From contig CBDFKD010000002.1 in NCBI GenBank assembly GCA_965248695.1, positions 5,161,691 through 5,225,690 on the forward strand: a stretch of 64,000 bases of DNA, read 5' to 3'. Under the pieces are notes generated by a model, which saw only the letters and a program-made list of their open reading frames with translations, made no database searches and was not told where the DNA came from. The translations under genes were made by a program, and so were the position numbers. This stretch comes from Acidobacteriota bacterium (lineage in GTDB: Bacteria; Acidobacteriota; UBA890; WLXD01). Shown here one piece after another: positions 28,303 to 58,999 of this stretch (positions are counted from its first letter, which is position 1; the number at the start of each line of letters is the position of its first letter).

Positions 28303-28622
28303 TCAGCTTCGAGTCCCCCGCGATCCCCGACGTTGAAGGCGTGGACATCGCCCCGGAGCGCGCACTTGCCGCTGCGGTGATCCGTCGGGCGATTGTCGAC
28401 CTGGGCATGGTGGCAACGTGGCGTGATCGAACCGAGCGGCCCGCTTGCACGTGCAAGAGGCTACGGGAGATCGGCCCCGAATCAGACCTGGTTGCGTGGT
28501 TGTCGCACCCGGAGGAGTTGCGCCCCTGCTCGCTGGGCTGGTGGTGTCAGTACATCGGTGCTGACCCGGTGGCGCTCACCGAACAACTGCGTCATCGAGG
28601 GCTCTTGGAGGCAGCGGCATGA
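28299..28622 (+). CDS. Hypothetical phage protein
   Basis: ORF overlapping both neighbours by 4 nt. No recognisable motif. Confidence 0.4.
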   Translation: MISFESPAIPDVEGVDIAPERALAAAVIRRAIVDLGMVATWRDRTERPACTCKRLREIGPESDLVAWLSHPEELRPCSLGWWCQYIGADPVALTEQLRHRGLLEAAA

Positions 28623-35110: not shown

Positions 35111-35140
35111 TTGACACCGCAACCAGGATCGTCGTATTGA
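35111..35140 (+). promoter_or_regulatory. Sigma70-like promoter candidate upstream of the scaffold gene
   Basis: TTGACA at 35111-35116, an 18-nt spacer, then TATTGA at 35135-35140. Confidence 0.35.
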
Positions 35141-35214
35141 TTCAAGGAGACGGATTCAGACGCAACGGACCGTAGCCGGGGGGCCACGGTCGGTCGCGCT
35201 GACAGGGTGGGAGC

Positions 35215-35976
35215 ATGCAAGTCGTCGTTGAAGATCTGGGTGCCGTTGCCGAAGCACTTCGCGACGAGTACGTGGAGCGTGACGGTAAGTACGTACTGAA
35301 GCTCGAAGGCGATGTGCCGGGGATGGTGGTGGCCTCGGAGCTGGAGGAGCAGAAGAAGGCCACGGCGCATTTCCGGGATAGCAACGTTGGTCTGAACAGC
35401 AAGATCGGTGATTTGACCACGAGGCTCGATGAGATCTCCGGTCTTGAGGACAAGTACACGAGCGCCGTCACGGAGCTTGAGACGTTGAAGAAGACGGCGC
35501 CCAAGAAGGACGCGGAGATGCAAGCGATCCAGGCGCAGCTAGAGTCATTGGCAAAAAAGCTCGATGAGTCCAATGCGCGCGAGGTGGCGGCACGGCAGCA
35601 AGCGGCACGGAAGGATCTTGAGTCGCAGCTGCGAACCGTGGGATCCAAGCTCGGAGTACGTGACGAGGCGTGGGAAGACTTTTTGTCTCGTGGAACAGCG
35701 GTCTTCCAGCTGACCGAAGAGGACGGCAAGGTCGTTGCCAAGCGTGGCGAGGAGCCGTTGTTTTCCGAAATCAACCCGGCGCTGCCGCTCACGATGCAAG
35801 AGTGGGGCGAGAGGCTACAGCGACAAGCGGCGCATCTGTTCAAGGAATCCACCGGAGGTGGAGCACGCCCGAGCGATACGAGCGGTTCCACAACGGGCAT
35901 GGCACGTATGGTTTCGGAAGATCAGTTCGGGGGGAGCTTGGAGGACATTGCGGCCGGCAAGGCCGTAGTACAGTAG
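35215..35976 (+). CDS. Scaffolding protein
   Basis: Acidic, coiled-coil-rich 253-aa protein directly upstream of the capsid gene. Confidence 0.55.
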   Translation: MQVVVEDLGAVAEALRDEYVERDGKYVLKLEGDVPGMVVASELEEQKKATAHFRDSNVGLNSKIGDLTTRLDEISGLEDKYTSAVTELETLKKTAPKKDAEMQAIQAQLESLAKKLDESNAREVAARQQAARKDLESQLRTVGSKLGVRDEAWEDFLSRGTAVFQLTEEDGKVVAKRGEEPLFSEINPALPLTMQEWGERLQRQAAHLFKESTGGGARPSDTSGSTTGMARMVSEDQFGGSLEDIAAGKAVVQ

Positions 35977-35990
35977 AGGACAGCAGTACC

Positions 35991-36277
35991 GAGCGTGACG
36001 TAGCACGCCATTAGGCTACGGCGGCTAACAGGGTCTCTTTAGATCCAGGGGGCCGCGCCCCGGTGGGGACGAATCGGAAGTAACCGAGCGTGACGCGGTG
36101 CGGTACGAAGCCGCGGCGGCTGGTGGATCTTGAAGGATCCAAGGGCCGTGCCCCGGTGGGGACGAATTCGGTAGTACTAAGACATATTCTGAGAGCGTGA
36201 CGTGGCACGCCATTAGGTCACGGCGGCTAACAGGGTCTCTTCAGATCCAGGGGGCCGCGCCCCGGTGGGGACGAATC
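35991..36277 (+). repeat. Three tandem ~85-nt hairpin-rich modules
   Basis: Units at 35991-36075, 36086-36169 and 36193-36277. Each reads GAGCGTGA, hairpin, GCGGCT, hairpin, GGGCCGYGCCCCGGTGGGGACGAAT. Confidence 0.7.
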
Positions 36278-36309
36278 CGCAACTTCTTTTGTGGAGGAGT
36301 GCCCCGACA

Positions 36310-37425
36310 GTGGCCAATACCAACACCACCACGCATATCGTTGACCGTCTGTTGGCACAGGGTCTGTTGGCTCTGCGCGAGATGGTGGTCATGCCGCGGT
36401 TCGTCAACCGCGCCTACGAAAACGTTCCGGGCGATCAGTACTCGACGATCGATGTACCGATCCCCTCGGCGATCGCCGCAACCGCGGTAACGCCTTCCAA
36501 CACGCCGCCCGACGATGCCGGGATCGCGCCGACGAAGGTGTCGCTCGTACTGGATCAGTGGTACGAGGCGCCGTTTTTCCTCAACGACAAGGAAATGCTG
36601 GAGGTGCAGTCGGGAACGATCCCGATGCAAGCCTCCGAGGCGATCAAGGCGCTGGCGAACAACATCGACAACGCCATCCTTGCCAAGTACAAGGACATCT
36701 ACGGGTACGCCGGCACGGCGGGCACCACGCCGTTTACGAGCGACCTGTCGGCGTTCGTGAACGCCCGCAAGGTGCTCAACGAACAGCTCGCGCCACTGGA
36801 TCCACGCTTTTGCGTGATCGATCCGGATGCAGAGGCGAACGCGCTGAACCTGCGCGCCTTCCAGGACGCCAGTTACCGGGGTGACCGTCAGGGTATCTTG
36901 CGTGGTGAGATCGGCGAGAAGCTCGGCTCCATGTGGGCGATGGACCAGAACGTTCCAACGCATACCACGGGCGGCGGCTCAGGCTGGCTGGTGAACCAGT
37001 CGGACCATGTGGTGGGCAACGGAACCGTGACGATCGATACCGGCTCGGGCGATCCCGCCGAGGGCGACATCTTCACGGTGGCCGGTGACACGCAGACCTA
37101 CGTCGTGGAGGCCTACGGGAGCAACGTCATCACCTACGCACCGGCGTCGAAGGTTGCCTGGGCCGACGATGCGGCGCTGACGTTCAAGGGCAGCCACACG
37201 GTGAACCTGGCGTTTCACCGTGACGCCTTCGCGTTGGCCATGCGGCCGTTCCAGGGAGCCGACCCGATGGGAGTCGGGACGTTCCGCGCGGCGGTCGACC
37301 CGGTATCGGGCTTGGCGCTGCGACTGGAAGTGTCGCGTCAGCACAAGAGGACTCGCTTCTCCTACGACTCCCTCTACGGTGTGCAGACGGTTCGCCCGGA
37401 GCTGGCGGTGCGCGTCGCAGGCTAA
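36310..37425 (+). CDS. Major capsid protein (P22 coat-like)
   Basis: GTG at 36310, about 10 nt after GGAGGAG. 371 aa. Called from position and family resemblance. Confidence 0.6.
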   Translation: MANTNTTTHIVDRLLAQGLLALREMVVMPRFVNRAYENVPGDQYSTIDVPIPSAIAATAVTPSNTPPDDAGIAPTKVSLVLDQWYEAPFFLNDKEMLEVQSGTIPMQASEAIKALANNIDNAILAKYKDIYGYAGTAGTTPFTSDLSAFVNARKVLNEQLAPLDPRFCVIDPDAEANALNLRAFQDASYRGDRQGILRGEIGEKLGSMWAMDQNVPTHTTGGGSGWLVNQSDHVVGNGTVTIDTGSGDPAEGDIFTVAGDTQTYVVEAYGSNVITYAPASKVAWADDAALTFKGSHTVNLAFHRDAFALAMRPFQGADPMGVGTFRAAVDPVSGLALRLEVSRQHKRTRFSYDSLYGVQTVRPELAVRVAG

Positions 37426-37447: not shown

Positions 37448-37484
37448 GGCTCGGTCGCGCTGGCTGCGTGCTCGCGACCGAGCC
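37448..37484 (+). terminator. Hairpin after the capsid gene (terminator/attenuator candidate)
   Basis: 12-bp perfect stem, 37448-37459 pairing with 37473-37484. No U-tract follows. Confidence 0.35.
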
Positions 37485-40576: not shown

Positions 40577-40999
40577 ATGCCTGGAAAGTACGGCTCCTCA
40601 TCGGTATCGGTGACCATCGAGGATGCTCCCGGTGGGACGGCCCGCGACATCTCCAACTACTTGCTCGAAGGGGTCGATCCACAGATCGAGGCGGCGTTTG
40701 TGGAGACCACCACCTACGGGGATGCCTGGGGAGAGCACACGCCCACGGGCATGAGGATGGTGAACCAGCTCACCTTCAATCTGATCTGGGACACGAGCAC
40801 GAACGGCCCGCACGACATCTTCAAGGATGTCGATGATGGTCCCCAGGATGACGGCCGCGAGGTTGTCATTACGGCCGGTGACGGTAAGACCCTCACGGGC
40901 GATGTGCGGGTGGTGAGCTTCCAGGTGGTGATGAGTGCCGAGGACATCCACAAGGCGGTCGTGGTGCTGCAGCCGACCGGCGCGTGGACCTGGGCGTAA
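40577..40999 (+). CDS. Tail tube-like protein (paralogous fold)
   Basis: The GDAWGEHTPTGMRMV block is similar to GDGWQKHTPIGVRQV in the previous gene. Confidence 0.4.
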   Translation: MPGKYGSSSVSVTIEDAPGGTARDISNYLLEGVDPQIEAAFVETTTYGDAWGEHTPTGMRMVNQLTFNLIWDTSTNGPHDIFKDVDDGPQDDGREVVITAGDGKTLTGDVRVVSFQVVMSAEDIHKAVVVLQPTGAWTWA

Positions 41000-55471: not shown

Positions 55472-55914
55472 GGAGAAGATGGGCGTTGACGGTACCTTAT
55501 CACGATACTGTGATGCTGCGAGTTGACGGCGCTTTCGGCGACTCACCTGGCGGGCAGCGATTATCACGGGCCATCCGGCGGGTATCGGGCGCACCCCCCA
55601 GTTCCTCCCCCACCGTAGAAAACACCGTGCGGCCCTTCGAAAAGGCCGCCCGGCGCTTGCGGGCACGTCGAAGCCCCTCAGCTTCGCGCGGCGGGAAAGA
55701 TAGCACGCGAGAAGATCGCCGGCACTTCAGCTGCCTGCCAGCAGATGCGGCGCCAGGCATGGCACAGGTGCTCGCGGCCAAAAAGCGGTCTTGATGAGCA
55801 ACCAAAAGAGCGGCCGGAGGAGGTATCGTAGCGAACGTACCGTTCCGACCGCTCTTTCGTTCTTCGTGTACCGGGTGGTGGTGGGCTGGTGCCGGCTCCG
55901 GGCTTCCTATCTAC

Positions 55915-55947
55915 GGGTCACGGGTTCGATCCCCGCCACCTCCACAC
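55915..55947 (+). other. tRNA/tmRNA 3'-end-like fragment (possible former att site)
   Basis: ACGGGTTCGATCCCCGCCACCTCCACA gives a T-arm plus a 3' acceptor strand. No convincing 5' half lies within normal tRNA distance. Confidence 0.45.
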
Positions 55948-57032: not shown

Positions 57033-57119
57033 GCCATCGTGGCGAAATCGGCAAACGCACCCGGTTTGCGACCGGGCGGCTGTCTAGGCCTTGTGGGTTC
57101 GAGTCCCACCGATGGCACC
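57033..57119 (+). tRNA. Class II (long variable arm) tRNA, Leu-type body, anticodon UGC
   Basis: Acceptor 57033-57039 pairs with 57110-57116. 3-bp D stem with an 11-nt loop. Anticodon stem 57060-57064 pairs with 57072-57076, loop TTTGCGA. 16-nt variable arm. T arm GTGGG TTCGAGT CCCAC. Discriminator A followed by CC. Confidence 0.7.
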
Positions 57120-58752: not shown

Positions 58753-58827
58753 GGCCTCGTGGACAACAGACGGTCAAGTCGCGGGACTGGAAATCCCGAG
58801 ATCCCGGTTCGACACCGGGCGGGGCCT
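58753..58827 (+). tRNA. Class I tRNA, Cys-like body, anticodon GGA
   Basis: Acceptor GGCCTCG pairs with CGGGGCC (one G-U pair). Anticodon stem CGGGA/TCCCG with loop CTGGAAA. 4-nt variable loop. T arm CCCGG TTCGACA CCGGG. Discriminator T. CCA not encoded. Confidence 0.65.
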
Positions 58828-58999
58828 CACCTTTCTCCCCTGACAGCAAGGAGGGTCAGATGATAGCGCGAGCACCACCGTCAGCGCATCCCTGAACGCC
58901 GAAGGGGCCGGGGTGCGTCTCACGATGCTCCCCGGCCACCTATAAGTCGCCCGGCCCGCTGCACGAACAGCGAACCGGGCTAGATCCAAGACGCGGGCA

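Follow-up and report, generated by a model that had tools for sequence, protein, structure and literature searches.

Phages require many more copies of the coat and scaffold proteins than of any other virion protein, and one long late operon usually encodes both. Small hairpins serve as operators for the translational control of phage genes, as in the coat protein-replicase operator of MS2 and PP7 and in the Com-mom system of Mu. Hairpins located at the 5' end of an mRNA or between cistrons can also act as stabilisers, as in ompA and REP. The scaffolding protein of P22 reportedly regulates its own production after transcription, and we know of no RNA operator defined for P22.

Here we describe an array of hairpins located between the scaffold and coat genes of a prophage, and it resembles each of these systems in part. 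With MS2/PP7 and Mu Com-mom it shares a small hairpin of conserved apex near a ribosome-binding site, where the identity of the stem is free and the apex is fixed. The differences are that a GGN triloop is closed by C-G, that the copies are in tandem, that two genes carry the hairpin and that the cognate protein is hypothetical. The resemblance to P22 consists of a head module with a P22-fold coat and a scaffold, and of head-protein output that would be set after transcription; however, genes 8 and 5 of P22 abut, and there is no leader to compare. By analogy, P22 autoregulation may serve as a lead, and only as a lead, towards a trans-acting factor. Further, as with the post-capsid stem-loops of P22, HK97 and lambda, hairpins bracket the most highly expressed cistron of the late operon. 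In contrast to the coat leader, the stem-loop and stabiliser elements of P22, HK97, lambda and ompA/REP are not known to have a conserved apex or to belong to a multi-hairpin family that covaries and keeps to the 5' side of a gene.

The nearest described analogue is the Start-Associated Sequence (SAS) of Cluster K mycobacteriophages with its ESAS, which are, like the element studied here, short, oriented and phage-specific repeats just upstream of start codons (PMC3203893). The SAS is a 13-mer, GGGATAGGAGCCC, located 3-7 nt upstream of the start codons of 11-19 non-structural genes (PMC3203893). A role in translation initiation has been proposed for it, with no factor known, and its authors found no support for RNA pairing in the ESAS (PMC3203893). 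Both the SAS and the coat leader have an outer symmetry of the GGG...CCC type around a Shine-Dalgarno-like core. Unlike the SAS, the coat leader has stems that covary, lies 24-80 nt upstream, is found at coat and scaffold genes only and belongs to a larger module of three hairpins. We do not regard it as a Cluster K SAS, as both sequence and spacing differ and the element is limited to two structural genes. In addition, a catalogue from 2023 describes unnamed candidate structured RNAs upstream of phage capsid genes of the capsid family PHA00201 (PMC10690425). As described there, these are computationally predicted cis-regulatory RNAs located consistently upstream of the major capsid gene, as is the coat leader; so far as the description goes, the capsid family it names is a different one.

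The stretch of DNA that was analysed, here called the window, is 64 kb long. Positions 1-27000 are host DNA, with a Mutator-family transposase, a Rieske oxygenase, a PQQ dehydrogenase, ABC transporters and a DUF7133/HEAT protein. In the prophage part (28600-55700) the structural module begins directly after a DNA methylase at 28619, and no lysogeny module is visible on the left side of the prophage. At the right end there are three tRNA genes (57033-57119, 58753-58828 and also 55874-55945). The 87-nt tRNA has the anticodon UGC (Ala), yet it has a long variable arm and a C at position 3, and because of this C the alanine identity pair G3:U70 is missing. The 76-nt tRNA has the anticodon GGA (Ser) but lacks a long variable arm. 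In each of these two the architecture seems at odds with the anticodon.

Within the structural module, the gene of the head scaffolding protein (253 aa, 35215-35976, + strand; phrog_206, E 3e-19, with only coiled-coil matches in Pfam) is followed by a gap of 333 nt (35977-36309) and then by the major capsid, or coat, gene of the P22-coat type (36310-37425, + strand; PF11651, E 1e-18; phrog_283, major head protein, E 7e-73). The start of the coat gene is GTG 36310, as set by a 100%-identical database protein of 371 aa (P0001). Its initiation region (36293-36312, + strand) consists of the ribosome-binding sequence GGAGGAG (36293-36299), CCCC (36302-36305) and the GTG codon (36310-36312). A consensus scan found no sigma-70-like promoter in the gap between scaffold and coat.

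The gap is occupied by three units of about 85 nt, each of which is predicted to form three hairpins in succession (H1, H2 and H3) on the + strand. Unit 1 (35991-36075) contains H1 at 35999-36020, H2 at 36021-36056 and H3, CCCC GGU GGGG, at 36058-36068, followed by the tail ACGAAU (36069-36074). Unit 2 (36086-36169) is a diverged copy, with H1 at 36094-36115, H2 at 36116-36149, H3 at 36151-36161 and the tail at 36162-36167. Unit 3 (36193-36277) adjoins the coat gene, and its H1, H2, H3 and tail are found at 36201-36222, 36223-36258, 36260-36270 and 36271-36276. H1 has a stem of 6 bp and a loop of 4-12 nt, H2 is long and variable, and from H3 through the tail all three units read CCCC GGU GGGG ACGAAU. 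The initial annotation had placed three units at these positions, filling the gap between scaffold and capsid genes, and the sequence and both gene assignments bear this out (phrog_206 upstream, phrog_283 and PF11651 downstream). Its layout needs revision in part. The first two hairpins stand, but what was taken as a linker, GCGGCT, pairs with GGCCGY of the supposed tail and forms the outer stem of H2 (GCGGCU/GGCCGY), which encloses the second hairpin noted earlier. Neither is the conserved tail linear, as it contains the third hairpin, CCCC-GGT-GGGG.

In a repeat search, units 1 and 3 are 95% identical, while the middle unit matches at 72% over the 39 nt of the 5' part and at 89-100% over 28 nt of the 3' part. 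A 25-nt motif from the 3' part has exactly 3 copies in the 64 kb, against 0 in 100 shuffles. The array is not listed by Tandem Repeats Finder, presumably as a consequence of its irregular spacing (95 and 107 nt) and the diverged middle unit. The spacers are richer in AU than the units. That the array is not a CRISPR, as had been argued from the sequence, is confirmed: the units are 85 nt long with gaps of 10 and 23 nt, whereas CRISPR repeats are of ~23-50 nt and alternate with unique spacers of similar length.

Single units have only modest fold z-scores (-2.4, -2.5 and -0.8). RNAalifold predicts 26 pairs from the three units; in 4 of them both partners differ between units, and in 5 a change of one partner gives G-U. 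The compensatory stem changes claimed earlier are real. The four differences between units 1 and 3 are all neutral to the structure; three of them are located in hairpin 1 (A-U to G-C, G-C to G-U) and one in the loop of hairpin 2. Such pairing-preserving changes from unit to unit argue for selection within the array, although the triplication could be a neutral product of slippage.

Several known kinds of element were compared with the units. Rfam 15 gives no match at E <= 10 in 35850-36400, and none at E <= 1 in 16 relatives. An intrinsic terminator is rejected, as H3 is trailed by ACGAAU and there is no U-tract. The sole terminator-like match in the gap, at 36265-36280, is weak, and the region as a whole has 4 such matches where shuffled sequences give 2.5 +/- 1.7. 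Hairpins that bind CsrA/RsmA carry GGA in the loop; the loops in the window read GGU and those of the family are mixed, so we do not assign the element to this class. Antiterminator RNAs of the N-utilisation (boxA/boxB) or HK022 put type follow an early promoter, carry defined boxB or put stem-loops and allow read-through of terminators. The Rfam search gives no match to such RNAs, and a boxA-like sequence, GUCUCUUUAGA, is found in the H2 loop of units 1 and 3 and is not kept in unit 2.

Short motifs of the array need some care as search patterns. In one of its frames the conserved 3' motif CGCCCCGGTGGGGACGAATTC (36055-36075 and its counterparts in the other two units) encodes RPGGDEF and thereby coincides with the signature of GGDEF domains (loci L030-L149; seen in L137), a trap for pattern searches. 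The 17-mer GCCCCGGTGGGGACGAA has at least 120 single matches in bacterial genome contigs, and among the matches listed none extended beyond about 25 nt. The GGDEF signature is the likely reason for many of these. Those extended matches that were inspected lay inside other sequence, the one in L137 being the RPGGDEF of GGDEF-domain genes, and are ascribed to chance. Other scans of viral contigs with 16-18-mers gave either nothing or known coat relatives together with chance matches. An apparent tandem array in L286 (IMGVR_UViG_3300004817_000002) is an unrelated repeat of about 25 nt, CCCCGGTRSSGCAGAAATTGC, found at the end of the contig in the first ~300 nt of the reverse strand and not linked to coat genes. 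Chance also accounts for TCCCGGTGGGA at 40627 in the window, which is inside an ORF, and for three clustered hairpins in L318/L326, which lie 5.1 kb upstream of the coat gene inside an ORF of 141 aa and encode ...NPGGGRPKG....

Homologous modules were sought near coat-gene relatives from viral and metagenomic contigs, with 27-68% protein identity. We found no nucleotide similarity to GenBank phages. A covariance model built from the three window units alone (R1) detects, in each of eight relatives (L200, L160, L218, L219, L203, L223, L221 and L199), a single module of full length that immediately precedes the coat gene on the + strand. The E-values range from 3e-8 to 3e-3, with further matches down to about 0.03. 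In the window, R1 matches the three units only, and the next match has E 3.3. The matches span 35986-36080 for unit 1 (R1/R2), 36081-36173 for unit 2 and 36188-36282 for unit 3, all on the + strand. A second model (R2), built from the R1 matches in one iteration, was used to search 410 kb on both strands. It gave 31 matches at E <= 0.1, and all are on the + strand and in coat leaders. Two more relatives, fetched independently by exact-protein look-up, carry one module each.

In the relatives the module lies within about 60 nt of the coat ribosome-binding site. More than one module was found in no relative examined, so the triplication is seen only in this prophage. It is well supported by sequence comparison that the units represent three copies of a three-hairpin RNA leader that relatives carry once upstream of the coat gene. 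The comparison proposed in the initial annotation thus agrees with it: the module is found ahead of the capsid genes of related phages, and covariation is seen in its stems. In L005-L008 and L165 an HNH-endonuclease-like ORF takes the usual place of the scaffold gene, and the leader hairpins remain on its coat side. Among cultivated phages, Vibrio phage SSP002 (51% coat identity) has a scaffold-coat gap consisting of a terminator, a sigma-70-like promoter and then two C-GGG-G hairpins.

These matches bear on an origin from the host. GC-rich hairpin repeats in an intergenic gap could be a repetitive extragenic or miniature mobile element of the host, inserted by chance, and the minimum-free-energy fold of a single unit resembles a four-way junction, as a tRNA-like cloverleaf would. 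However, there is no further copy in the 64-kb window, including its 27 kb of host DNA, while homologues are found at the equivalent syntenic site in dozens of unrelated metagenomic phages. The element is associated with phages, and within that host DNA the host-wide repeat that the initial annotation had named as a counter-explanation is not seen. Neither ARAGORN nor Rfam finds a tRNA or tmRNA at 35991-36277, and the closing helix of the cloverleaf is 73% paired, with one pair mostly unpaired across homologues, so it is without support from covariation. We regard both versions of this explanation as barely credible.

Covariation across the family is extensive. In a 31-sequence alignment (A4), which like the others used for counting pairs was fitted to the model and leans towards its structure, 89.1% of the cells pair against 62.8% when shuffled (a level of 89.1% is reached by 0 of 500 shuffles), while in slid registers 37-49% of the cells pair. 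In the same alignment a compensatory change is found in 25 of the 26 pairs, and pairing amounts to 95% in H1, 82-90% in H2 and 98% in H3. In an independent alignment of 18 sequences (MAFFT and RNAalifold) H1 and H3 are found again and 9 of their 10 pairs show compensation; only H2, which varies in length, is missed.

There are 55 G-U cells against 24 A-C cells. This excess of G-U, together with the strict orientation, speaks for an RNA with the sense of the coding strand and against a DNA palindrome, and the homologues, the covariation and the orientation agree with the structured RNA-type element suggested by the initial annotation. At the level of DNA, the element would be a set of short inverted repeats to which a transcription factor of the phage binds, or it would belong to a late promoter. 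Operators can be small palindromes; in L199 a hairpin abuts a -35-like TTGACA, and in L203 a hairpin follows a sigma-70-like promoter. However, the placement relative to promoters is inconsistent, the stem sequences vary while complementarity is kept with the use of G-U pairs, and H1 and H2 are long variable hairpins rather than conserved half-sites. The strand bias of the core hairpin, reported below, also disagrees with a DNA element, and we consider this explanation highly improbable.

The most widespread part of the module is H3. Its apex is CC-GGN-GG, its stem has pyrimidines in the 5' arm and purines in the 3' arm, and it is usually followed by (A/C)CGAA. The loops found across the family are GGU (46), GGA (24), GGC (9) and GGG (8), and the apex is kept in AT-rich phages (L175, L235) as in GC-rich ones. 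In the 150 nt that precede the coat start, 51 of 85 distinct relatives have CC-GGN-GG hairpins whose stem is 4 bp or longer (64 hairpins), where the background per 150 nt is 0.02 for the + strand and 0.015 for the - strand. H3 lies about 24 to 80 nt from the coat start.

To place these hairpins along the genome we scanned flanks of 10 kb at 78 loci (904 kb) in bins of 300 nt. The bin that precedes the coat gene has 56 CC-GGN-GG hairpins, and the zone of the scaffold leader has 27. No other bin has more than 4, most of these lie within ORFs, and no other gene is enriched. In the coat-leader bin the 56 hairpins on the + strand compare with 2 on the - strand. A non-circular test starts from the CCGGNGG heptamers and asks which have a stem of at least 4 bp: 62 of 70 do (89%) in the coat-leader zone, against 21 of 154 (14%) elsewhere. 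On the minus strand there is a small cluster of CC-GGN-GG matches (15 in two 300-nt bins) within the coding sequence of the relatives' coat genes, between +300 and +900 relative to the start, and this is probably a conserved coding motif, not a structure.

The core hairpin also occurs just before the scaffold ribosome-binding site, in at least 13 relatives. There it is often found in two tandem copies that abut this site, for instance GUCCCGGUGGGACcaGUCCCGGUGGGACGGAAAAGAGGAugugAUG in L200, and in L203, L235 and L253 the GGAGG at the apex of the hairpin is itself the scaffold ribosome-binding site. In the window the scaffold leader has a hairpin at 35168-35191 (+ strand), GACCGU-A-GCC GGGG GGC-C-ACGGUC, with a z-score of -2.5 for its fold in a context of 91 nt. 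It ends 23 nt before ATG 35215. It would be a variant, with a loop of 4 nt, of the family's hairpin with a G-rich apex, presumably equivalent to the CC-GGN-GG hairpins that relatives have at this place. By eye, a sigma-70-like TTGACA-18-TATTGA can be seen upstream of this hairpin at 35112-35141; the consensus scan made no call there.

The distribution of the hairpins further limits the reading that the array is cut in its spacers into RNAs of ~95 nt, which would titrate a host or phage factor, either as small RNAs that act in trans or as decoys. Such processing would fit three separate units, each with a stable fold, and the AU-richer spacers between them, and several hairpins with G-rich apices recall sponge RNAs. 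Against this, the single copy of relatives is fixed beside the coat start and co-oriented with it, the core hairpin adjoins ribosome-binding sites, and the 904-kb scan found no copies away from coat and scaffold genes. We find a role in trans very unlikely.

We therefore turn to what the module could do in cis. Among the functions listed in the initial annotation, the sequences favour a cis-acting leader of the coat mRNA, while antitermination, trans-acting small RNAs and decoys receive no support. We propose, with a probability of roughly 0.55, that the module is a cis-acting leader RNA for the post-transcriptional control of coat and scaffold output. It would act on the late mRNA and set the output of coat protein, and the version consisting of H3 only would do likewise for the scaffold protein. 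The most likely route is that the apex of H3 would be the recognition site of a putative factor that controls the initiation of translation. In addition, the coat cistron may be shielded from RNases by the stack of hairpins on one side and the strong hairpin on the other, and three copies would then provide three recognition sites and three barriers. That the units are transcribed, that a trans-acting factor is involved and in which direction output is changed are matters we infer.

A strong rival is that the hairpins are nothing but a passive stabiliser or insulator of the mRNA. They would then protect the coat cistron against scanning by RNase E and against 5'-end-dependent decay, and the scaffold cistron against 3' exonucleases; no specific factor would be involved and extra copies would merely add barriers. 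The surroundings of the coat gene fit this. A strong GC-rich hairpin of 12 bp is predicted by folding at 37448-37484 (+ strand), 23 nt after the coat stop codon, so the coat cistron is bracketed by the modules on its 5' side and by this hairpin on its 3' side. The record of P22 annotates a stem-loop at the equivalent position, and its note calls the location similar to that of the stem-loops of HK97 and lambda. Further, the number and shape of the hairpins vary among relatives, from one to four hairpins or H3 alone, many relatives have an additional strong hairpin right after the scaffold stop codon, and AU-richer spacers would suit cleavage by RNase E.

However, a passive stabiliser needs no conserved CC-GGN-GG apex, no asymmetry of pyrimidines and purines and no CGAA tail, and all of these are kept across base compositions. 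It also leaves unexplained why a hairpin abuts or contains the scaffold ribosome-binding site (L200, L203, L235, L253). We consider stabilisation alone possible but doubtful. Recognition of the H3 apex by a factor is favoured because apex, stem asymmetry and tail are conserved in phages of very different base composition, and because a passive barrier would have no need of a hairpin placed against ribosome-binding sites. Two features speak against a strict operator: the third base of the loop varies (U > A > G, C), and so does the distance between H3 and the coat start; both are loose.

A leader RNA could also work by alternative pairing. In the OFF state the loop and 3' arm of H3 would pair with the stretch that separates the start codon from the ribosome-binding site; in the ON state the locally folded H3 would free this region, and a factor or upstream translation would pick the state. 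To assess the complementarity between H3 and the initiation region we used a percentile test within each locus; it replaced a permutation test across phages that was partly confounded by base composition, as the control with the 5' arm was also significant. For 36% of 56 phages the complementarity of the 3' half of H3 ranks within the top 5% of windows at the same locus; for the control with the 5' arm the share is 12% (Kolmogorov-Smirnov p 1e-6 and 0.1, respectively). Different phages pair different sequences, as in L199 (GGUGGGCCC/GGGCCCACC), L005 (GUGUGGCC/GGCCACAC) and L219 (CGGAGUGGCC/GGCCAUUUCG). However, the complementarity is significant in only about a third of the relatives, and it is absent in those whose modules are most like the window's (L200, L160, L218). 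In the window itself, GGGGAC of H3 in unit 3 could pair, only moderately, with GU-G-CCCC of the initiation region; the duplex of -9.9 kcal/mol, at a within-locus percentile of 0.30, is not significant. As an explanation of the module, a switch of this kind appears unlikely.

A more specific version of factor recognition is that the CC-GGN-GG hairpins are operators of a feedback coupled to assembly, in which free scaffold or coat protein, or another conserved protein of the head module, binds both leaders. Binding would set the ratio of scaffold to coat at the level of translation, and the tripled module would be a cooperative version with several sites. We offer this tentatively, as a rather improbable reading. 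If true, it would provide an RNA target for the P22-type post-transcriptional autoregulation of scaffold, which has long been known genetically and is not known to have been explained mechanistically.

We found no named motif for the coat leader in Rfam or in the searchable literature, and the nearest analogue, the SAS, differs in sequence, spacing, the set of genes and the lack of RNA pairing. On these grounds we class it, from its sequence, as a candidate new family among the leader RNAs that act in cis on late genes of phages; its triplication in tandem is seen in this prophage only. With this element, the few cis-regulatory RNAs linked to structural genes of phages gain one well-supported family. 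The element recurs over many phage lineages, from AT-rich to GC-rich, and leader hairpins of the same type are found in the cultivable group of Vibrio phage SSP002. The tripled copy is a natural variant in dosage. A covarying RNA located before the coat and scaffold genes only would offer a testable handle on how phages set the ratio of these two proteins.
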